This document shows positions 7,728 through 59,522 of a stretch of 64,000 nucleotides of DNA, in pieces (position 1 is the stretch's first letter; every line of letters starts with the position of its first letter). Source of the stretch: Desulfobaccales bacterium (GTDB lineage: Bacteria; Desulfobacterota; Desulfobaccia; Desulfobaccales; 0-14-0-80-60-11); NCBI GenBank assembly GCA_049585595.1, contig JBAVAG010000025.1:17632-81631 (forward strand), read 5' to 3'. The notes beneath the pieces are model-generated. The model saw only the letters and a list, made by a program, of their open reading frames with translations. It was not told where the DNA came from and did not search any database. The translations under genes were made by a program, and so were the position numbers.

Positions 7728-7845
7728 GGCAATTTTCCGGAGGCGAATGGAAGCCGGCGTCACTTCCACCAATTCATCGTGGTTGCTGAACTCCAGGGCT
7801 TCCTCCAGGCTAAAGTGTCTGGCGGGGACGAGCCGCAAGGGGCTT
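7728..7845 (-). pseudogene. displaced 3'-end fragment of typA
   Basis: 51 nt identical and the next roughly 65 nt about 85% identical to 34137-34254, the real typA 3' end. Translates to ...[39 protein letters not shown]. Confidence 0.8.
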
Positions 7846-7939
7846 CCCCGCTCCCTGTTTGCCGTGCCCGCCGCGGGTAATTAACTCATATCGATAATTT
7901 TAGACGCTGCGAAGATCAGTGCTAGTTTTGGCAAGTTAG

Positions 7940-8035
7940 TCGCTACCTGTGCCATGCTCATTTCACTGCTATGACTGGGAACTTATCAAGACTCTGAAAA
8001 CTTCCCCTATCCAGATCATATCCGGAATTTTTTCT
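7940..8035 (-). pseudogene. IS3-family transposase (OrfB, DDE/rve) relic
   Basis: About 80% identical over about 68 nt to 29118-29185. The minus-strand translation contains a D-x-DRGS-like stretch interrupted by stops. Confidence 0.4.
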
Positions 8036-8759
8036 TTCTGATGATGGAGCAATAATTTAATATAAAAAATTTTATATCAATAATTCTTAGCAACAATTTT
8101 CTCTGTCCATATTAGAGCCTTAGCTCTTTTCTTGTCCTTCCCCGTTAGAATCTGTTTGACATAATAATCACAATCTTTTGGTTTGTCACTATTGCCGCAA
8201 TTCCTTATCCTGTATTTTAGGAGGGAAGCCTTATCTTGCATCTTGGGAGGGAAGCTATAAGCTCAAGATTTTCCTAAATTCTATCCAAGCCGCAGGTTGC
8301 ATGAAGAATAAGGATTATGGTTATCTTCCAGACCATTTTGCCATGGTCTCTCGCCGGGATTTCTTCAAGTTCTGTGATTTATCTAGGTCAAGTTCTGCAA
8401 ATTGGTTCGGGTATACGGGGTTTATTAGTTCTCCCGAGCCGCAGGGTTGAGCCGCGGAGGGCCGCGAGAATGGGCCCTCAGGTTCCAGATCCTAGTCAAA
8501 GTTTCGGGTTTATCAAGTTAACTAGATGTCACCCCTTTGCAACTATAAAAAGGAATATTACAAAAATGGGATTTTTAACAGAAATGCAACTTACCTTCTT
8601 GCGCGAACCTCATTCGGACCAAAAGGAGGACTCGTTTACTTTTACAATCTGTAAAAAATATTGACAATTCCCCCGCGGGAGGAACGGGGAGGCTGGGGGG
8701 ACTTGATTAAAGGATATTAATTTTCAACCAGTTGCCCCAGACAACCTTTGCCCGGGGTT

Positions 8760-8775
8760 TGGCACGGCCGTTGCT
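8760..8775 (+). promoter_or_regulatory. sigma54 (-24/-12) promoter
   Basis: TGGCACGGCCGTTGCT matches TGGCACG-N4-TTGCW exactly. It lies about 135 nt upstream of the receiver gene that heads the hdr-met cluster. Confidence 0.6.
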
Positions 8776-8910
8776 ATCCTAAAACCCGGGAGAAGGCGAT
8801 GCCAGTGATCGTCCTACGGAAGAGGGTTATTTTCGATCTAAAAAAGCCGGGGGATAACCTCCCTTACCTGGGTCTTTATCGTTCAAGACAGCATAGGAGC
8901 CTGAGGGCGA

Positions 8911-28718: not shown

Positions 28719-28887
28719 CGGCAAGGGCCAGCGCTCGCCAGCAGCGAGTCCAATTGGCAAGGACCGCTGACTCCCGAGGCTTAACCAAGGAGGAGAAGCG
28801 ATGGCTGCCCTTTGACGCCGACGGCTTCTGGCCCCCGACCAGGAGTGTTTTTGATGGGTGGAATTTCCCACGTTAGGTTAGTTTCCA

Positions 28888-29190
28888 TCAATTCTTGTTG
28901 CCTAATCCAGAATTAGTTCTCATAAACCTCTGCCGGAGTCCTTCATTATAGAAGCGGAAGTAACACCAGACCTCCTGCATAGCCCAAGGCACCGATGCGT
29001 AATCTTTGGGGTGAAATTCCTTATATTTCAAAGAGAGCCCTAAAATTTCGGTGAAGATGTTATCCTTCGCCTGGCCACAACCAAGCATGCTGCCGATAAC
29101 CCCCATAGCGGCTTTCTGCTATGATTCGGGACTTATCAGGAAATTAAAAACTTCCCCTATCCGAATCATATCTGGAATTTTTTCCACACC
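28888..29190 (-). pseudogene. IS3-family transposase OrfB C-terminal relic
   Basis: The minus strand reads ..DRGSFFNFL..*..GSMLGCGQAKDNIFTEILGLSLKYKEF...VWCYFRFYNEGLRQR. This resembles SDRGSQY...SMSRKGNCWDNA..ESFF..LK.E.......YI.FYN..R.H, with stops and a truncation. Confidence 0.5.
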
Positions 29191-29386
29191 ACTGATAAGC
29201 CTCGATCCTGGCAAGTTCTAGAAACTTTCGAATCCAAGATTTTCGCTTTCCCTTTGGCAAACCATCTCTGGCTCGATTTGAACCCCCTTATAACTTAAAA
29301 CTTGGTTAAACTGCCGGGGGCAGGTCAACGACCTTGCTGACCTTTACAAAGTGCTTAATTTATTAATTTTGAAAGGGGATCAATCC

Positions 29387-29485
29387 ATGGACCTTGTTTG
29401 GGTAACTATCACCCTGCTTTTCTTTGTGATTTGCCTGCTGTACGTCGGCTTCCTGGCCAATGAGGGCAAAACATGGAAAACCTGA
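29387..29485 (+). CDS. putative 32-aa hydrophobic peptide upstream of kdpF
   Basis: MDLVWVTITLLFFVICLLYVGFLANEGKTWKT. Overlaps the kdpF start. An analogous peptide gene precedes kdpF of the second operon. Confidence 0.35.
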   Translation: MDLVWVTITLLFFVICLLYVGFLANEGKTWKT

Positions 29486-36901: not shown

Positions 36902-37600
36902 ATGCCCTGGGTAGAATTCTGCTTGAGGCTGGTCTTGGCGCTGATTTTCGGGTGCGTCATCGGCTTCGAAAGGCAACTGCGGCAGCGGCTGGCGGGAATG
37001 CGCACCAACACGCTGGTTTCCGTCGGTTCGGCCTTGTTCGTGTTGATGGGGATGATGACCCCGGGCGACAGCAGCCCCACCCGCATTGCGGGCCAGGTCG
37101 CCTCCGGTATCGGCTTCCTGGGGGCCGGGGTCATCATCTGCCACGGCCTGAATGTCAGGGGTTTGAACACCGCCGCCACCTTGTGGTGCTCCGCGGCCGT
37201 GGGCGTTTTATGCGGGGCAGGATTTAAAACGCAAGCCCTGGTGGGAACTTTCGCAGTCCTGGTGGCCAACATTTTGCTGCGGCCGCTGGCGCAGCGATTC
37301 CCCCGGCATGTGGACAATCGGGCCGAAGGCGAAATGACCTATCGGCTCATAGCCGTCTGTTGAGCCGAAGATGAGCAAAAGATGCGAGCCTTGCTGATGC
37401 AGATGGTTAATGCGAGCCCCTTAATGATCGGCTCGCTCCTCAGCGAAGATACCGACAATCCGGCCAGGGTGGAGATGAGCGCCAAATTGGTCAGCCTTGG
37501 CAACAATCACGCCGCCATGGAGCAGCTCGTCTCCCGCCTCAGCCTCGAGGCTGGGGTCAGCGCCGTAAGTCGGGAAATCGCAGGCCAGGAAGAGATTTAA
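36902..37600 (+). pseudogene. mgtC: MgtC/SapB-family protein with one in-frame TGA at 37361-37363, between the membrane domain and the C-terminal soluble domain
   Basis: GFERQLRQRLAGMRTNTLV...GIGFLGAGVI...RGLNTAATLWCSAAVG, then YRLIAVC-TGA-AEDEQKMRALLMQ...SLLSED...VSRLSLEAGVSAVS, all in one frame (track ORFs 36713-37363 and 37382-37600). Confidence 0.65.
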
Positions 37601-37615
37601 GGAAGGAGGTGAGGC

Positions 37616-37897
37616 ATGAGAATAAAGGACTTGCATGGTATAGAAGGTTTCATCTGGCCTCCCGAATGGGTCGCCAGACTGGGAGGATCTTATGAGAAAT
37701 GGATTTTACAAGAAGTAAAGCTGTATAAGGACCATGATCCGCCTTCTATCTATATCGAGGCTGTATATAAAAGCGATGCTCAAGAAGGTGTAATCTATCT
37801 GGACCCTCATGAGCTTCTTGAGATCCTCTATCAGTTGCTTAATAAAAATATCGGAAAATCCTTAGCAGTGATCGGAGACTTAAAGATAACCTTTTAA
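37616..37897 (+). CDS. hypothetical protein (93 aa), AT-rich
   Basis: GGAGG upstream of the start. About 40% GC versus about 62% in the neighbours. No family recognised. Confidence 0.4.
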   Translation: MRIKDLHGIEGFIWPPEWVARLGGSYEKWILQEVKLYKDHDPPSIYIEAVYKSDAQEGVIYLDPHELLEILYQLLNKNIGKSLAVIGDLKITF

Positions 37898-38032
37898 ATA
37901 TTAACAATATATTAATTGATTAATAGTGAGGCTCAAATAAATATTAATTAAAATGTTGCGGGCTTGCTACTGGATTGATGGAGCGGCTAATATCTCAATC
38001 CGTTCAGCTGACCCAATTTCCCGAGAGTAACC

Positions 38033-39346
38033 ATGTTTTGGCTCAGCAAGGCTATCCACCTCACGAATCGCTTCCGGCGGAGATTGCTCATTTTCCTGGC
38101 GGTGCTGGGACCCGGCATCATCGTGATGGTGGCGGATAACGACGCCGGCGGCATCGCCACCTATGCGGTGACCGGCTCCAAATACGGGTTCTCTCTGCTC
38201 TGGCTGTTCGTCCTGCTGCTCCCCATGGCTTACTATGTCCAGGAAATGACGGTACGCCTGGGATCCGTGACCAAACGGGGACATGCCGAGGCTATCTTTG
38301 ATGGCTTCGGCCCCTTTTGGGGCTGGTTTTCCCTCGGCGACCTGGCCCTGGTTAACTGGTTGACCCTCATCACCGAATATATCGGCATGACTGAAGCTAT
38401 GGCCATGTTCGGCATCCCCCGCTGGATCACCTATATCGGGGTGACCCTTATCCTTTTTGGCGTGGTTATCTCGGGAAAGTATTGGACCTTCGAAAAGGTC
38501 ACCCTGTTTTTCTGTCTCTTTAACCTGGTCTATATCCCCGCGGCCTTTTGGGGGATGAGCATCTCTTACTCTCCGGGATGGGGGAAGGCCATGGAAGGAT
38601 TCATACCCCAGCTCCCCGGCGGCCTCACCGGCGACATGATCTTTATCCTCATGGCGAACGTCGGCACGACCATCGCGCCCTGGATGATCTTTTTTCAGCA
38701 GAGTGCGGTGGTGGATAAGGGCATGGATGTTCACGATATCCCCTACGGCCAGCTTGAGACCTTCCTCGGTTCCATTTCCACCAATGTGGTGGCGGTTTTT
38801 ATCATTCTGACCACCGGGGCGGTGCTCTTTTATCATCATCCACCCATCACCGTGGAAGACGTCAAACAGACCGCCGAAGCCCTGATGCCCCTGATGCCGC
38901 ACGGACAGGGGGACTGGGCCAGGAAACTCTACGCCATCGGCCTTTTTGACGCCGGCTTCCTCGGGTCCCTGTGCATCTCTCTGTCTTCTTCCTGGGCCGT
39001 GGGGGAGGTTTTCGGCTGGGCCCACTCCTTGAACGCTCGGGTCAAGGACGCCATCTGGTTTTATCTGATTTATCTGGGTATGCTCGCCACATCTGGTGCG
39101 GTGGTGCTAATTCCGGGAGCCCCCCTGATCACTATCACCATGTTCGTGCAGGTCATCGCGGTTACTGTGCTGCCGGCAGCCTTAATATTCTTGTTGTTGC
39201 TGTTAAACGACAGGGCCACCATGGGCGACCACGTGAATACGCGGGTGCAAAATATTATGAACTGGTCTATTGTCATCATTGTCTGTGCCGGCTCCACCCT
39301 TTTGGGAATCCAAACGATGTTCCCTATCTGGTTTGGAGGGTCGTAA
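38033..39346 (+). CDS. NRAMP (SLC11)-family transporter of the NRAMP-related Mg2+-transporter type
   Basis: NRAMP fold (GPGIIVMVADNDAGGIATY...). The TM1 motif is D-A-G-G instead of D-P-G-N, and the TM6 motif is G-T-T-I-A-P-W instead of G-A-x-I-M-P-H. Confidence 0.75.
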   Translation: MFWLSKAIHLTNRFRRRLLIFLAVLGPGIIVMVADNDAGGIATYAVTGSKYGFSLLWLFVLLLPMAYYVQEMTVRLGSVTKRGHAEAIFDGFGPFWGWFSLGDLALVNWLTLITEYIGMTEAMAMFGIPRWITYIGVTLILFGVVISGKYWTFEKVTLFFCLFNLVYIPAAFWGMSISYSPGWGKAMEGFIPQLPGGLTGDMIFILMANVGTTIAPWMIFFQQSAVVDKGMDVHDIPYGQLETFLGSISTNVVAVFIILTTGAVLFYHHPPITVEDVKQTAEALMPLMPHGQGDWARKLYAIGLFDAGFLGSLCISLSSSWAVGEVFGWAHSLNARVKDAIWFYLIYLGMLATSGAVVLIPGAPLITITMFVQVIAVTVLPAALIFLLLLLNDRATMGDHVNTRVQNIMNWSIVIIVCAGSTLLGIQTMFPIWFGGS

Positions 39347-52078: not shown

Positions 52079-53242
52079 TTAAATGAACCCGGCCCGCAAG
52101 GGCTGCGGGAAGAAGAGTTCCTGCGAGGTGCGCAAAAAATAGGCGTCGGTCATGGAGGCCAGAAAATCCCGGACGATCTCCGCAGGCTGGTGGGACTCCC
52201 GATAGGCGGGGTCCAGGGGGGCCAGGAACTCCCGGTAGATGGGCGAGTCGCGCCGGTCTTGGGCCAGGTCCTCCAAAAACCGCTGGAACAGTCGCTGGCA
52301 CAGGGCCTCGATCTTGGAGGTTTGCTCCTTGATGCGGGGATTGTTATAGATCCGCTGGTAATTGAACTCCTTGAGCTCTCTCAACAATGCCCCCACCTCG
52401 GGGCTGTATCCCACGTAGTTCTTGTCAAAACTGTGGCGCAGCAGGTCGGTCACCAGGCTGTAAACGATGGCGCCGTTGGTGCGGCCCAGGCGGCCCGCCA
52501 CCTCCGGGGGCAGCTCCTCCCGCTTGACCAGCGACAGGGTGATGGCGTCCTCCAGGTCCCGGCCGATGTAGCTAATGGTATCCGCCAGCCGGACCACGCA
52601 GCCCTCCAGGGTCATGGGCTTCAGAGAAAGCCCCGGGTCAGCCGTCTTGCTGCGAATCTCCTCCTCCAGATGGGCGAAGGTCTTGTCCCGCTGAGGGGAG
52701 AGGCGCTCCAGGTGGGTCTCCCCGTCGTGGCACAGGATGCCGTCCAGCACTTGCAGGGAGAGATTGAGGCCCCGGCCGTTTTTCTCCAGGCGGTCGAGAA
52801 AGCGCACTCCCTGGATGCTGTGGATAAAGGGGCCGATGCCGTGGGCCTGGCAGAGGACGGAGAGGATTCGTTCTCCGTCGTGGCCGAAAGGCGGATGGCC
52901 GATATCGTGGCCCAGGGCGATCGCCTCCAGCAGGTCTTCATTCAGCCGCAAAAACTTGCCGATGGTGCGGGCGATCTTGGATAGGAGCTGCACGTGCAGC
53001 ACCCGGTGGCTGATGTGTTCATGCTCGACGAGATAAAAGACCTGGGTCTTGTCAATATAACGGGTGTAGGCCCGGGAGTGGAGGATGCGGTCGGCATCCA
53101 CCGCGAACTCCTGACGGTGGCCCCGGGCCACGGACTCTTCAAAGCGGCGGCGGGATGCCTGGACCGAGCGGGTGGCGTACGGCGACAGCCAGGTTTCCTC
53201 CTGCTGCTCCAAGATTTGCCGTAGTTCCGATAGCTTGACCAT
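52079..53242 (-). CDS. dGTPase-like HD-domain phosphohydrolase
   Basis: RVLHVQ...ALGHDIGHPPFGHDGE motif. Start set at MVKLSEL. Confidence 0.8.
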   Translation of the reverse strand: MVKLSELRQILEQQEETWLSPYATRSVQASRRRFEESVARGHRQEFAVDADRILHSRAYTRYIDKTQVFYLVEHEHISHRVLHVQLLSKIARTIGKFLRLNEDLLEAIALGHDIGHPPFGHDGERILSVLCQAHGIGPFIHSIQGVRFLDRLEKNGRGLNLSLQVLDGILCHDGETHLERLSPQRDKTFAHLEEEIRSKTADPGLSLKPMTLEGCVVRLADTISYIGRDLEDAITLSLVKREELPPEVAGRLGRTNGAIVYSLVTDLLRHSFDKNYVGYSPEVGALLRELKEFNYQRIYNNPRIKEQTSKIEALCQRLFQRFLEDLAQDRRDSPIYREFLAPLDPAYRESHQPAEIVRDFLASMTDAYFLRTSQELFFPQPLRAGFI

Positions 53243-53357
53243 TGAGGTGCTATTTCCCGAATCACTATCATAGCACAAGAGCCGGCGCCCCTCAATAGCG
53301 GCAGGTTCTGGTAGCCGCAGACTTTAGCCCGCGCTCATCGAGCTTTTGCCCTAGCTG

Positions 53358-53555
53358 CTAGTGCTATGTCCTACAATTATCTTACCAAAAGATTTGAGAT
53401 AACCCCCCCTCCCTGAGAGGGGAGGGGGTTGGGGGGAGGGTGGCAACATATGGTAAATGAAAGATAAATTACCACCCACACCCGGTGTCGCCCCCTCAAG
53501 GGGGAGGGAAAAAGGGAAAGCGTTTATGCAACGTTTTCGTGGGACACAATACTAG
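53358..53555 (-). mobile_element. 198-bp MITE-like repeat, inverted copy
   Basis: Reverse complement of the 978-1175 / 58071-58268 family, with the same TIRs. Confidence 0.7.
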
Positions 53556-53708
53556 CAACCACCTAATCCACCCGCAGATTCGGGGCAGCGGACCGGCCTC
53601 CCGAGAATTGTTTGGTATTATGGCAAAGGTATGATATTTATTAAGTTTCATGGAATTTCAGACCGCCGGGGTTTAAGGTATTTTGGGCGCCGGCGCCGGG
53701 CCGAACAG

Positions 53709-54629
53709 ATGGACGACCGCGCTTATCTGGATGATTTTCTGCGCTACCTGCGGGTGGAGCGTCAGATGTCGCCCCACACCCTGCGGAGCTATCGTCTCGA
53801 TATCGGCCAGTTTTTGGAGTTTTACCGCTCCCGTCCGGGAAACCCTGATTTGCGGGAGGTGGCCTACCCGGACCTGCGGGCCTTCCTGGCCCAGGCCCTT
53901 AAGGGCCGGCGCAAGGCCACGGTGGCCCGGAAGCTCTCGGCCCTGCGCACCTTCTGCAAGTACTTGCAGCGCCAGGGGGTGTTGGCCGCCAACCCCGCCA
54001 GGCTGGCCCCCAGCCCCAAGCTGGAGAAGCCCCTGCCCCATTTTCTGACGGTGGACGAGGCCTTTCATTTGCTGGGCGCCTGCGGCGGCGACGCCTTCGG
54101 GGCCTGCCGGGACCGGGCCATTTTGGAGGTCTTTTACGGCGGCGGTTTGCGGCTGTCGGAATTGGCCGGTCTCGACCTGGGGGACCTGGACCTGGATCAG
54201 GGGGTGCTGCGGGTCTGGGGCAAGGGCGGCAAGGAGAGGCTGGCCTTTCTGGGGAAGCCGGCCCGGGAGGCGGTGGCCGCCTATCTGGCCCGGCGCCTGG
54301 CCCTGGCGGCCAAAACGGCCGGGGTGGCCTGGACCGAAGCGCGAGAGGCTGCTCCCCTGTTCCTGAACCGGCGGGGCGGCCGCCTCAGCTCCCGTTCCGT
54401 GGCCCGCCTGGTGGGCAAGTGGGCGCGGCTGGCCGGCCTCTCCCAGGCCCTGACCCCCCACGGCCTGCGCCACAGCTTTGCCACCCACCTGCTGGAGGGC
54501 CGGGCCGACTTGCGCACCGTCCAGGAGCTGCTGGGGCACGCCTCCATCTCCAGCACCCAGCGGTATTTGCATACGGACCTCGATTACCTGATGGAGGAAT
54601 ACGACAAGGCGCATCCCCGGAGCAAATGA
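53709..54629 (+). CDS. xerC: tyrosine recombinase XerC/XerD
   Basis: Phage-integrase SAM-like N-terminal domain (YLRVERQMSPHTLRSY), and HGLRHSFATHLL...LGHASISSTQRY with the catalytic Tyr. Classic xerC-hslVU neighbourhood. Confidence 0.9.
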   Translation: MDDRAYLDDFLRYLRVERQMSPHTLRSYRLDIGQFLEFYRSRPGNPDLREVAYPDLRAFLAQALKGRRKATVARKLSALRTFCKYLQRQGVLAANPARLAPSPKLEKPLPHFLTVDEAFHLLGACGGDAFGACRDRAILEVFYGGGLRLSELAGLDLGDLDLDQGVLRVWGKGGKERLAFLGKPAREAVAAYLARRLALAAKTAGVAWTEAREAAPLFLNRRGGRLSSRSVARLVGKWARLAGLSQALTPHGLRHSFATHLLEGRADLRTVQELLGHASISSTQRYLHTDLDYLMEEYDKAHPRSK

Positions 54630-54804
54630 CCAATATAGCGGTAGCACAGGCGTCTCGCCTGGGCGGCGCAGGTTTTTTGCCAGGACCCGCGGCTACCAAT
54701 AACCGATTTTGATCTCGTTCCCAAGTTCCACTTGGGACCGAGCCATTCACGATTCAGGGGACCACCCAAAACCATGAAAATCTTTGAAGTCTGAGGTTTT
54801 AAGT

Positions 54805-54915
54805 CCCCCCTCCCTGAGAGGGGAGGGGGTTTAGGGGGAGGGTGGCGGTCGCCTTTCGTAGCTGCACAGGAGACGCCACCCCCTTCCCAACCCTCCCCCC
54901 TCAAGGGGGAGGGAG
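54805..54915. repeat. internal-module-only relative of the MITE family (paired CCCCTCC/GGAGGGG hairpins)
   Basis: CCCCCCTCCCTGAGAGGGGAGGGGG ... CCCTCCCCCCTCAAGGGGGAGGG, without the GTCCCAC termini. Confidence 0.5.
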
Positions 54916-55021
54916 TTGAACCGCTACGGTCCTGAGGGACTAGCGGTATTAGCGCCGCGAACCAATTTCAGAGGAAAAAGCTTTTCTTGGCGCCCTTGGC
55001 GTCTTGGCGTGAGGTCATCCC

Positions 55022-55567
55022 ATGGACCAGGATATGAAAAAATTCCGCGGCACCACCATCCTCATGGTGCGCCGGGGGGATCAGGTGGCGGTGGCCGGCG
55101 ACGGCCAGGTGAGCCTGGGTGATATGATCATGAAGCAGCGGGCCAAAAAGGTGCGCCGCCTCTACCACGGCAAGATCATCGCCGGCTTCGCCGGTTCGGC
55201 GGCCGACGCCCTCACCCTGTTCGAGCGCCTGGAGGCCAAGCTGGAGGCCCACCAGGGGAACCTCACCCGGGCGGTGGTGGAGTTGGCCAAGGATTGGCGC
55301 ACCGACCGCATCCTGAGGCGCCTGGAGGCGATGCTGCTCACCGTGGACTTGAGCGGGGCCTTTCTCATCTCCGGCACCGGCGACGTCATCGAGCCGGATG
55401 AAGGGGTGATGGGCATCGGCTCCGGCGGGGCCTACGCCCTGGCCGCGGCCCGGGCCCTGCTGGCCCATACCGATCTCGCCCCCGCGGCCATCTGCCGGGA
55501 GGCCCTGGAGATCGCCGCCTCGCTATGAGTTTATACCAATAACGAAATTGTGATTGAGGAGTTGTAA
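55022..55567 (+). CDS. hslV: HslV peptidase subunit; in-frame TGA at 55526-55528 followed by 12 conserved codons
   Basis: GTTILMVRR...GFAGSAADA...GSGG pattern. The track ORF ends ...[12 protein letters not shown], and the same frame continues [15 protein letters not shown] (compare the E. coli end DICIYTNHFHTIEEL). The tail is 31% GC versus about 70% upstream. Confidence 0.8.
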
Positions 55568-55578
55568 TTTCATTAAAA

Positions 55579-56430
55579 ATGAATATTTTTTATTTAGATA
55601 CAAGTGCTATAAATAGGCTTTATGATAATCCAAAGATTCCGGAACTGAAAAATGCAATTATATTTAAGGGGAAGATATTTTTAAGTATTTTTAATATAGT
55701 CGAACTTGCTTCAGAATCAAATAAAGAGCGCCGAGAAGGACTACTTAAACTAGCTAGAGATATTGGTTGTAATTATCGCCCACTTGCGATGCCTAATGAA
55801 ATTCTCAAGAGAGCGGTAGAGGCAGTTAGGGTTTTAGCTCGTGATATGAATTATTCTATGGGGGAAGAATGGGATGAAGTTTGGGTTATATTGAAGGAGC
55901 CAGAGCAAATAGATCTAGAAGCATATGATAAGATAATAAAATGGAAGAAAAAACAGGAGCAATGGTATCAAGAATTACATGATAGAGGCCGCAATCTTTG
56001 GCAGGACAAGATATCTGATCTGTCTAAGGAGGAACGTCATACCTTTACGTCTAATTTTTCGAAATTGATAAAAACATACAGGCCAGAATTTATTGCAAGT
56101 TTTGTATCTAACCTCGCAAATAAAGGGGCTAATTTGACAATAAATGATGAACTTGCTAAGAGAATAGTTAGGCACTCTGAACATTGGAGATTCTTTCTAT
56201 TCAGTATGACATATGGTATGTTTGTGAGGTCTATTAGAACAAGCAATTTTGCCAAATCTAAGACACCTGGAAGCATTGACATACAACAATCAATTTATTT
56301 AGCAAATTGTGATATCTTTATAACTGCGGATGATGCTCAATATGCTATGCTTCGCTTAATTAACCAGTTCGGTCATAGAAAGAGAAAAGTATGGAAAGCT
56401 GCAAGATTCATAGAGTGGCTTTTGAACTAA
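55579..56430 (+). CDS. PIN-like nuclease-domain protein with a large central insertion (283 aa), AT-rich cargo gene
   Basis: N-terminus IFYLDTSAINRL and NIVELAS, C-terminus DIQQSIYLANCDIFITADD, giving PIN-type acidic residues D/E/D/D. About 33% GC. Sits exactly in the hslV-hslU spacer. Confidence 0.5.
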   Translation: MNIFYLDTSAINRLYDNPKIPELKNAIIFKGKIFLSIFNIVELASESNKERREGLLKLARDIGCNYRPLAMPNEILKRAVEAVRVLARDMNYSMGEEWDEVWVILKEPEQIDLEAYDKIIKWKKKQEQWYQELHDRGRNLWQDKISDLSKEERHTFTSNFSKLIKTYRPEFIASFVSNLANKGANLTINDELAKRIVRHSEHWRFFLFSMTYGMFVRSIRTSNFAKSKTPGSIDIQQSIYLANCDIFITADDAQYAMLRLINQFGHRKRKVWKAARFIEWLLN

Positions 56431-56452
56431 TACACTTGAAGGACTTTGAATT

Positions 56453-57830
<1,378 letters not shown>

Positions 57831-57832
<2 letters not shown>

Positions 57833-57858
57833 GCAGTGAGCGGTGAGCAGTGAGCAGT
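57831..57858 (+). repeat. tandem heptamer repeat (GAGCAGT x4) starting at the hslU stop codon
   Basis: GAGCAGT GAGCGGT GAGCAGT GAGCAGT, followed by a string of short GC hairpins (57859-58020). Confidence 0.7.
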
Positions 57859-58070
57859 AGGGTGCGCCCTGCGCACCGAAAAATGGGCGCGACCGTCTTC
57901 AAAAGAAATGTGGCGCCGCCGCCCTCGGCGGCGGAAGCAAGGTAGCCGCAGGCTTTAGCCTGCGCCGCACAGGCGGGACGCCTGTGCCACCCAAAGAAAA
58001 CCTGGGGCGGCCTGTGGCCGCCGGAAAAGCATATCCTGGAAAGAGGAACATCGCTGGCTGAAGCCTGCAG

Positions 58071-58268
58071 CTATTACTGTGTCCCATGGAAACGTTGCAT
58101 AAATGCTTTGCCTTTTCCCCTCCCCCTTGAGGGGGCGACACCGGGTGGGGGTGGTAATTAATCTTCCATTTACCATATGTTGCCACCCTCCCCCCAACCC
58201 CCTCCCCTCAAGGGAGGGGGGGTTATCTCAAATCTTTTATTTAAGATAATTGTGGGACATCACACTAG
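58071..58268 (+). mobile_element. 198-bp MITE-like repeat, full-length copy
   Basis: About 90% identical to 978-1175 with the same TIRs. Confidence 0.7.
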
Positions 58269-58334
58269 CTAATGATGCCGGAATCCTCAACGTTTTTGCT
58301 GACCGCTGAATGCTGATAGCCGCGAGGGACTTAA

Positions 58335-59522
58335 GTGAAGCAGAACTGGATGCCACGCGCCGATAAGGTGGTCATGAACACTTACGGCCGCCAGCCCCTG
58401 GTGTTGGTGAAGGGGGAAGGCTGCCGGGTGTGGGATGATCAGGGGATAGAGTACCTCGATTTGGTGGCCGGCCTGGCGGTCTGCAACCTGGGCCACGCCC
58501 ATCCGGAGGTGGCCCGGGCCGCGGCGGCGCAACTGGCGCAGTTGGTCCACGTCTCCAATCTCTACTACAGCACCCCCATGGTGGAGCTGGCGGAGTTGCT
58601 GGTGCGCCTCTCCTTTGCGGACCGGGTCTTTTTCGCCAACAGCGGCGCCGAAGTGAACGAAGGGGCCATCAAGCTGGTGCGCCGCTACTCCCGGGAGCGC
58701 TTCGGGCCCGGCCGGCACCGCATCATCTGCATGGAGAACTCCTTCCACGGCCGCACCCTGGGCGCCCTGTCCGCCACCGGCCAGTCCAAATTCTGGCAGG
58801 GTTTCGACCCCTTGCTGGAAGGCTTTTTGTTTGTGCCCTTCAATGACCTGAAGGCCCTGGCCGCGGCGGTGGACCACAGCGTTTGCGCAGTGCTCTTGGA
58901 GCCCATCCAGGGAGAGGGCGGCGTCTGCCTGCCGGACGCCGATTATTTAAAGGGCGTGCGCCGGCTGTGTGCGGAGAAGCAACTGCTGCTGGTCGTAGAT
59001 GAGATTCAGACCGGTCTGGGCCGCACCGGGCGGCTCTTCGCCCACGAGCACTTCGGCATCCAGCCCGATGTGATGACCCTGGCCAAGGCCCTGGCGGGCG
59101 GCCTGCCCATGGGAGCGCTGTTGGCCACCGCGGAAGTGGCCGGGGCCTTCATCCCCGGAACTCACGCCAGCACCTTCGGGGGCGGGCCGGTGATCGCCGC
59201 CGCCGCCACCGCCGCCGTATCCATCTTGAGCGACGCCAAGTTGCTGGCGGAGGTGCGCGCCCAGGGCGATTATCTGCAAAAGGCCCTCTTGAAGCTTAAG
59301 GCCGCCTTTCCCGTCATCCGCCAGGTACGGGGTCTGGGCCTCATGTGGGGCCTGGAGCTGGCCCGGGAAGGGGGGCCCCTGGTGGCCGCCTGCCGGGAGC
59401 GGGGAGTCTTGGTCAATTGCACCCAGGGCAACGTCATCCGGCTGCTGCCGCCCTTGATCGTCACTACGGATGAGCTAAACCGGGGATTGCAGGTCCTGGA
59501 GGAGGTCTTGGGTTCATTGTAG
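58335..59522 (+). CDS. argD: acetylornithine aminotransferase
   Basis: Class-III aminotransferase: [33 protein letters not shown]. Located next to argF. Confidence 0.9.

Follow-up and report, generated by a model that had tools for sequence, protein, structure and literature searches.

A long-retained candidate nuclease gene in an apparent accessory-gene slot between hslV and hslU of uncultured Thermodesulfobacteriota

Free-standing homing endonuclease genes of phages, such as seg and mob of T4, sit between conserved genes. Hotspots flanked by core genes are known from Pseudomonas aeruginosa, as core defence hotspots (PMC10250203), and from Escherichia coli, as defence-island integration hotspots (PMC10121019), and one preprint places HslV to HslU among the universally conserved adjacencies in Pelagibacter. 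The locus described here lies in a 64,000-nucleotide (nt) stretch of contig JBAVAG010000025.1 (Desulfobaccales bacterium, assembly GCA_049585595.1, positions 17,632 to 81,631 of the forward strand), referred to as the window, and consists of an AT-rich gene for a protein of 283 amino acids (aa), the cargo gene, inserted between hslV and hslU, which code for the proteolytic and ATPase subunits of the HslVU protease. The best account of the locus, with a little more than an even chance of being correct, is a long-retained, selected, stand-alone gene for a probable nuclease in an accessory-gene slot of the hslVU operon; a literature search for an hslV/hslU hotspot found no precedent.

Like the core-gene-flanked hotspots, the slot has housekeeping flanks, a content that ranges from nothing to unrelated cargo, a foreign composition, and no integrase. 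Unlike them, it lies inside a two-gene operon of near-universal adjacency and not between separate transcription units, its cargos are single small open reading frames (ORFs) of 0.4-0.9 kb and not multi-gene islands, the cargos tested match no known defence model, and one of them persisted through ~19% nucleotide divergence. With seg and mob of T4, the cargo gene shares the form of a solitary nuclease-like ORF set tightly between conserved co-transcribed genes and patchy in relatives, whereas it has no Pfam, NCBIfam, or PHROG match to a recognised homing nuclease family and no sign of recent spread or co-conversion, being chromosomal, long kept, and under purifying selection. Its product resembles VapC and other PIN proteins (PF01850; PDB 3TND, 5H4G) in a hydrophobic strand followed by D-T-S and in a later helix glutamate, aligned with VapC D7 and E42, in acids that follow the predicted third and fourth strands (D234 and T249-x-D251), and in weak structural matches to VapC/PIN. 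It departs from VapC in its length (283 aa against ~130-150 aa) and in a core split by a helical module of ~155 aa, from VapBC in having no upstream antitoxin gene, and from VapC/PIN at large in remaining below the family threshold in every sequence comparison.

Boundaries of the insert and content of the slot

The guanine-cytosine (GC) content, taken in 200-nt windows, is 0.67-0.73 in the hslV body, 0.30-0.41 at ~55500-56400, and 0.63-0.69 in hslU, and the composition break between the two genes is real and far above chance. The low-GC block is filled by a single 283-aa ORF on the + strand, the other ORFs inside it being short and antisense; the composition profile and this ORF bear out the AT-rich single gene that a first-pass annotation, made from the letters alone, had placed between hslV and hslU. 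The same annotation let the insert begin within hslV, at 55526, a start that does not survive BLASTN comparison with the two closest relatives, loci L027 and L028 (~93-94% nucleotide identity to the window). Homology to these relatives ends at 55567/55569 and picks up again at 56439, with sharp boundaries, so that the insert comprises 55568-56438 (871 nt, ~33% GC); in its place, L027 has a 111-nt palindrome-rich spacer and L028 has 1.5 kb with a different gene. The insert starts immediately after the hslV stop codon, ends 14 nt upstream of the hslU ATG, and is made up of an 11-nt leader, the ORF, and an 8-nt trailer, with 11 nt from the hslV stop to the cargo ATG and 22 nt from the cargo stop to hslU. 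No direct or inverted repeats are found at 55568 and 56438, no integrase or recombinase gene is present within the insert, whose content is one ORF only, and an Rfam scan of 53200-58400 gives no match in it; simple consensus scans detect inside it neither a promoter-like site on the + strand nor a terminator-like site. The tyrosine recombinase gene xerC is a conserved housekeeping neighbour and not the integrase of the insert, since most of the 80 species scanned (an HslU scan with one genome per species, yielding 80 loci) have an xerC homolog upstream of hslV.

The composition does fall at 55526-55529, and the hslV tail has a GC content at third codon positions (GC3) of ~0.5 against ~0.9 in the gene body. 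Nevertheless, the tail is native because nearly the same sequence occurs at the empty site of L027, with 2 mismatches to the window in 39 nt, and next to a different cargo in L028, which is near-identical too. The last 13 hslV codons are as low in GC as in the window in L027, L028, L029, L030, L031, L032, and L033, and the tail is low in GC in more than 40 species with no insert. Specifically, the tail segment has a GC content of 0.22-0.58 in relatives with no insert and is lower than the gene body in all of them (body and tail being 0.67 and 0.47 in L041, 0.62 and 0.42 in L039, and 0.57 and 0.33 in L037). A codon-table count puts the ceiling of tail GC at ~0.53, as set by its amino acids, including Y, N, I, and E, and a low GC3 just before the hslU start would be expected of a translation-initiation region. 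On the other side, the AT-rich hslU start ATGGAATTGCTGAAA occurs also in empty-site and other-cargo relatives, the first hslU codons being ATGGAATTGCTGAAAGC in L028, as in the window, and ATGGAATGGCTGAAAGC, one base off, in L027, while an AAGGA ribosome-binding motif ahead of hslU is common to all three. Both the hslV tail and the hslU start belong, on these alignments, to the host flank and not to the insert. The proposals that a cassette brought its own hslV 3' end, or that a site-specific element rebuilt its target, are contradicted by a tail that is nearly the same in L027 and L028, empty site included, and by the lack of repeats and of a recombinase; as for the first hslU codons, they are AT-rich as described, but not derived from the insert, L028 being identical and L027 one base off.

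The usual arrangement of these genes is tight, as had been stated. In 65 species with an HslU identity of at most 70%, the gap between the two genes, taken between where the hslV match ends and where the hslU match starts, is 36 nt at the median and 417 nt at most. In the clade defined by an HslU at least 75% identical to that of the window, the spacer is a cargo slot with variable content among close relatives. A comparison of related hslVU loci finds empty-site relatives, L027 and L031, with essentially empty spacers of 111 nt and 94 nt. The L028 spacer holds a 249-aa ORF (L028:3489-4238, GC 0.28) with a weak DUF5677 match, together with a DUF2283 gene (L028:4608-4805), that of L029 a 153-aa ORF (L029:4376-4837, GC 0.38), that of L030 a 146-aa ORF (L030:4439-4879, GC 0.27), and those of L032 and L033 a DUF2283 gene and a cytochrome b561 gene, with or without a GDSL-type hydrolase. 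Overall, six spacer contents, the empty state included, occur among about a dozen related genomes, and no similarity is detected among the slot cargos of L028, L029, L030, L032, and L033. HslV-HslU is among the most conserved bacterial adjacencies, and the slot at this place shows that even tight two-gene operons can be hotspots; it also yields candidate genes of unknown function, of 283 aa in the window and of 249, 153, and 146 aa in the relatives.

Some further observations concern the spacers themselves. The 249-, 153-, and 146-aa ORFs belong to no confident family, the only matches being the weak one to DUF5677 and one to PHROG 35745 (function unknown). DUF2283 and cytochrome b561-like (Ni_hydr_CYTB) genes recur in the slot (L011:6990-7607, L032:1539-2603, L033:3942-4828, L028:4608-4805) and may represent older slot content. 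Palindromes like repetitive extragenic palindromic (REP) elements, GGTGGGCAGTGCCCACCCTACATTT, and GCTGACAGCTGA repeats occupy most spacers of the clade and are both lost from the window; they lie just 5' of hslU in L028, L029, L030, L127, L128, and L011 (e.g., L127:1119-1250), and the L031 repeat contains TTGACA, a possible -35 box for hslU. The hslV of L027 (MFD00991.bin.2.24; L027:4300-4850) reads as frameshifted in mid-gene, a suspected indel error of the assembly.

Age, selection, and genomic contexts

At least four lineages, represented by the window, L011/L107, L127, and L128, have the cargo gene at one and the same site, 10-12 nt downstream of hslV, and the four copies share 81-86% nucleotide identity (lineages ~19% apart). 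The L011/L107 homolog has 77% protein identity and the same site and is followed by cytochrome b561. On the short contigs of L127 and L128, the hslV tail is followed by a related leader of 10-12 nt, CTTCATAAAA (TTTCATTAAAA in the window), and then by the cargo gene, downstream of which L127 has REP-like elements and then hslU. In the divergence test, which covers one lineage pair, the window against L011, the synonymous divergence (dS) of the cargo gene is 0.76, compared with 0.44 for hslV, 0.63 for hslU, 0.79 for xerC, and 0.66 for argD, and the ratio of nonsynonymous to synonymous divergence (dN/dS) of the cargo gene is 0.18. The GC3 of the two copies is 0.29 and 0.27 for the cargo gene, against 0.91 and 0.86 for hslV, 0.88 and 0.87 for hslU, 0.87 and 0.82 for xerC, and 0.86 and 0.82 for argD. 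The cargo gene is under purifying selection and retains a very low GC3 with no drift to the host composition; moreover, its divergence from the L011 copy is close to that of the flanking genes, and it is a long-term resident of the slot. The recent entry from a low-GC donor favoured by the first-pass annotation does not agree with its presence in at least four diverged lineages and with a cargo dS similar to the flanking dS. A GC3 of ~0.28 kept in a genome of GC3 ~0.88 over a dS of ~0.7 is a clean natural case in which to ask whether accessory genes escape GC-enriching forces.

The family extends well beyond this site. A word-based search returns 47 relatives, 32-100% identical and each either unnamed or annotated as hypothetical, and an exhaustive profile search returns 600 representative clusters at E <= 1e-3, 133 of them at E <= 1e-30; the architecture is fixed, for nearly all members are 275-300 aa long and match full-length. 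None of Pfam, NCBIfam, PADLOC, and PHROGs contains a model for the family, and searches of the 283-aa protein against PADLOC, NCBIfam, and PHROGs give no match. The cargo is a one-gene unit because no neighbour is conserved across the homolog contexts, a finding that, together with gaps of only 11 nt and 22 nt in the window, upholds the earlier statement that an antitoxin-like partner is missing. No conserved non-coding cassette ends are found across these contexts either.

A second conserved operon, for a branched-chain amino-acid ABC transporter, also harbours the family, since homologs in L017 (L017:6001-6873) and L108 (L108:5001-5873) separate its genes livG and livF, with a cargo GC of 0.41-0.44 against ~0.6 for the host. 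Between L017 and L108, the identity is 77% for the cargo, 78% for LivG, and 83% for LivF, so that the livG/livF residency is about as old as the flanking genes. In L121, a further operon insertion, one that would split guaA, is unsupported, as the upstream ORF has no GATase match. Elsewhere, homologs often lie beside defence genes or candidates, namely Shedu SduA (L019), SIR2 (L112), PDC-S15/FRG (L119), PDC-M68A/B (L021), two tyrosine recombinases with a HEPN protein (L110), DUF4258 with an NTP-transferase/HEPN pair (L018), and RHH/ParE (L014), and those of L013 and L123 are surrounded by insertion sequence (IS) elements. The suggestion that homologs might recur between hslV and hslU or in defence islands is therefore borne out by at least four lineages at the former site and by the defence-gene neighbours; most members lie outside hslVU, in a liv operon, in defence islands, or next to IS elements. 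Searches of viral contigs and of phage and plasmid records find no homolog.

The protein and the readings of its role

The conservation pattern of the family is marked. Among 99 sequences, down to ~20% identity, D234 is invariant and D7, T8, S9, E42, R52, L55, R138, G231, Y240, L241, T249, D251, and Q254 are at least 90% conserved, while in a closer set of 46, W129, R138, Q142, and the SEHWRFF motif (residues 200-206) are invariant. The AlphaFold2 model of the cargo protein has a predicted local distance difference test (pLDDT) score of 88.5 and a predicted template modelling (pTM) score of 0.86. Its N-terminal part comprises a strand (2-6), two helices, a strand (31-34), and helices 37-44 and 49-63, its middle is a series of helices (72-219), and its C-terminal part comprises a helix (232-243), a strand (246-249), a helix (252-264), a strand (270-273), and a helix (274-282), so that the predicted core is split by a conserved helical insertion of ~155 aa (residues ~72-228). 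In the model, the acidic sites fall behind strand 1, within the helix that follows strand 2, where the helix following strand 3 begins, and behind strand 4. PIN domains carry acidic residues at those same four places. PIN is also the only recurring Pfam family, matched by 25 of the 46 and 43 of the 99 members with a best E of 3.8e-5 (24,736 Pfam models), and the weak recurring Foldseek matches in PDB are VapC/PIN structures, with target-normalised template modelling (TM) scores of 0.47-0.53. The first-pass annotation had described PIN-type acidic residues parted by a large insertion, and the conserved D-E-D-D set confirms it, with an insertion of ~155 aa and not ~180 aa; as to the PIN fold itself, the acidic pattern and the order of the model fit, and a significant profile or structure match is not obtained. 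PIN membership is plausible, statistically below significance, and a PIN-like fold of the cargo protein is judged likely, clearly above an even chance.

The favoured account can be set out as follows. In a clade of uncultured Thermodesulfobacteriota, the hslV-hslU spacer has become an accessory-gene slot that holds, depending on the species, various and mostly AT-rich single genes or nothing, and its cargo would turn over when the hslV and hslU flanks, which are highly conserved, undergo homologous recombination, with no site-specific integrase. The cargo gene would be transcribed with hslVU by operon read-through and translated from its own ATG; co-transcription with hslVU is the most likely arrangement because the insert has no visible promoter or terminator, and the dependence on operon transcription supposed in the earlier annotation is probably correct. 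The N- and C-terminal segments would together make up a metal-dependent nuclease core of the PIN type (D7, E42, D234, D251), and the ~155-aa helical module, with W129, R138, Q142, and SEHWRFF, would bind the substrate or gate the activity. The product would function as a stand-alone nuclease effector, acting on its own against phages or in abortive infection, or else as a stress module of the toxin type. The defence or addiction module proposed in the first-pass annotation is plausible; a stand-alone nuclease role in defence or as a toxin is the most likely one, as judged from the protein features and from the association with defence genes elsewhere. The 600-cluster family makes a reasonable candidate for a new defence or toxin system based on a single nuclease gene, and its split-PIN architecture could inform on the gating of such nucleases.

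Several results weigh against this account. The window protein scores 16.4 bits against PF01850 (E 0.014, model positions 2-60 of 120), below the Pfam PIN gathering score of 23.6 bits, all PIN alignments inspected cover the N-terminal half only, and deletion of the insertion from 60 members neither lengthens nor improves the Pfam PIN match. In hhalign, D7 and E42 align on D7 and E42 of VapC with an E of 0.006-0.009 and a probability of ~5%, against a shallow VapC alignment (>=73% identity) built from the word-based search, and whole-chain Foldseek finds no significant match in PDB or BFVD, the PDB E-values exceeding 1. PDB profile searches with the family alignments A1 and A2 and the core-only A4 return noise and one VapC hit (E 1.3), and a core-only construct (residues 1-72 and 226-283) folded with no alignment gives an unusable model (pLDDT 43). 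Moreover, the slot cargos tested (the window protein and those of L028 and L029) have no PADLOC match, the defence role is drawn from association in other genomes and from none at the hslV/hslU slot, the absence from mobile records is neutral for defence and offers no route of mobility, and the case for co-transcription comes entirely from simple consensus scans. Lastly, the cargo gene is absent from the two closest relatives, L027 and L028, and vertical inheritance therefore entails loss or replacement at the slot in these lineages; alternatively, old cargo alleles may have been exchanged among related lineages via the conserved flanks.

Among the competing explanations, the one that retains an appreciable, if clearly minor, share of probability is that the protein is not a nuclease, its D-E-D-D residues serving some other metal or nucleotide binding or marking a degenerate PIN scaffold in an ordinary accessory gene. 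Every sequence-level PIN test below significance and the whole-chain Foldseek result speak for it, yet precisely four near-invariant acids stand at PIN-typical places in the predicted secondary structure, and PIN is the sole recurrent match among the Pfam models. A homing-endonuclease-like selfish gene, improbable on the present evidence, would cut empty hslV/hslU and livG/livF junctions, be copied into them by repair, and only rarely be lost precisely. Such a gene would be consistent with a solitary nuclease-like ORF that has no partner gene and lies only 11 nt and 22 nt away from the adjacent genes, with the independent entry of the family into two different conserved operons, and with its patchy presence among close relatives; on the other hand, near-identical copies are not seen in diverged hosts and a cargo dS similar to the host dS points to long vertical residence, no co-conversion tract is seen and the flanks match those of empty-site relatives, a dN/dS of 0.18 is atypical of decaying homing genes, and unrelated genes fill the same slot. 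In addition, PIN-like enzymes are mostly RNases. A broader proposition, a shade less improbable than homing, is that of an operon-embedding gene class, in which a split PIN-like nuclease lodges between co-transcribed conserved genes (hslV/hslU, livG/livF) and persists for long with an AT-rich codon usage that is possibly selected, either through homing- or addiction-like behaviour or as a nuclease triggered by stress or phage, with expression linked to a core operon. If the gene did prove to be a selfish or addictive nuclease that embeds itself in operons, it would be of considerably greater interest.

A role of the protein together with HslVU, for example as a protease substrate, adaptor, or regulator, would explain its long retention in the operon under purifying selection and its probable co-transcription, but it is very unlikely, given that the closest relatives have no such gene and an intact hslVU, that most family members lie elsewhere (liv operon, defence islands, IS elements), and that unrelated genes occupy the slot in sister species. 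Slimmer still are the chances of a recent low-GC cassette, recombined inside hslV and hslU or inserted by a site-specific element that rebuilt the hslV 3' end, with a foreign tail. The exact coincidence of the composition fall with 55526-55529 and the GC3 of the tail favour such a cassette, while the same tail in L027 and L028, one with an empty site and the other with an unrelated cargo, the generality of low-GC tails in insert-free hslV genes, the homology with relatives through the hslV stop codon, the want of att-like repeats and of a recombinase, and a divergence from the L011 copy about equal to that of host genes oppose it. An assembly artefact, namely a chimeric join of AT-rich foreign DNA, has next to no chance of being the explanation, as the abrupt composition change, and nothing further, speaks for it. 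The identical 283-aa protein is found on 15 public contigs (ENA, NCBI, Logan; differing samples and assemblers), the xerC-hslV-ORF-hslU neighbourhood is constant in all 10 of those that were read (L001-L010), and diverged orthologous loci exist in L011, L107, L127, and L128; the chimera, which had been raised from the outset as a possibility, is ruled out because the same locus stands on 15 contigs from several samples and assemblers. A long-retained, selected gene for a probable stand-alone nuclease in an hslVU slot is thus the reading retained here.

The hslV TGA, feature coordinates, and nearby repeats

The in-frame TGA of hslV, described by the first-pass annotation as followed by 12 codons that complete the gene, is confirmed as such, for with Cys at the TGA the product matches the HslV model NF003964 over its full length at 280 bits (residues 5-181 on model positions 2-178 of 179). 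The codon is TGC (Cys) in all 10 other assemblies (L001-L010), which represent the same population and otherwise agree with the window here, the TGA being unique to the window, and its third base is the sole mismatch against L004-L010 over 1.4-3.8 kb. In these assemblies, the hslV calls are intact at 181 aa in 7 of 10, have a later start (177 aa) in 2, and are cut by the contig end in 1. This leaves a rare nonsense allele or a consensus error as the origin of the TGA, which is no junction scar; if the TGA is real, the HslV of this strain lacks its last 13 residues. Selenocysteine insertion or read-through is rejected in view of the TGC of the ten assemblies and of the RNA downstream, in which no structure like a selenocysteine insertion sequence (SECIS) is found (z = 0.43 against shuffled sequence), the selenocysteine reading being unsupported because the RNA 3' of the TGA is no more structured than shuffled sequence. 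The coordinates of the features are collected in Table 1.

Table 1. Features of the hslV-hslU region, in window coordinates
Feature	Position	Strand	Remark
xerC-type tyrosine recombinase	53631..54629	+	Pfam Phage_integrase and Phage_int_SAM_1 matches
hslV, proteolytic subunit, 181 codons	55022..55567	+	NCBIfam NF003964; TGA at codon 169 here
In-frame TGA at a conserved hslV Cys codon	55526..55528	+	TGC in L001-L010
Last 12 hslV codons and stop, 33% GC	55529..55567	+	Native; nearly the same in L027 and L028
Inserted segment, 871 nt	55568..56438	+	Homology breaks against L027 and L028
Cargo gene, 283 aa, unannotated family	55579..56430	+	PIN-like D7/E42/D234/D251; predicted helical insertion ~72-228
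Native hslU ribosome-binding region, GAAGGA and spacer	56438..56452	+	Aligns with AAGGA-N9-ATG of L027 and L028
hslU, AAA+ ATPase subunit	56453..57832	+	Pfam AAA_2, AAA

Inverted repeats of ~200 bp, ~90% complementary (53357-53556 and 58070-58269), bracket the whole xerC-hslV-cargo-hslU block, and related G/C-rich palindromic units, CCCCCTCCC...GGGAGGGGG, appear again at 54805-54923; they resemble a dispersed intergenic element of the miniature inverted-repeat transposable element (MITE) or REP type. The long hairpin at 54812-54908, upstream of hslV, gives spurious microRNA matches in Rfam that stay below threshold (mir-197, 35.5 bits where the gathering score is 74) and is a member of this palindromic repeat family and no known RNA. 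Within hslU, three tandem 12-nt units at 56891-56938 code for a low-complexity stretch (15 protein letters) that is missing from the L011 ortholog. Other short low-GC islets occur in the window at 7801-8800, 28851-29450, and 37551-38100, with a minimum of 0.35-0.42 against 0.59 for the whole window, and in the last of them a 93-aa ORF (37616-37897) lies just 5' of a 437-aa ORF (38033-39346) rich in hydrophobic stretches.

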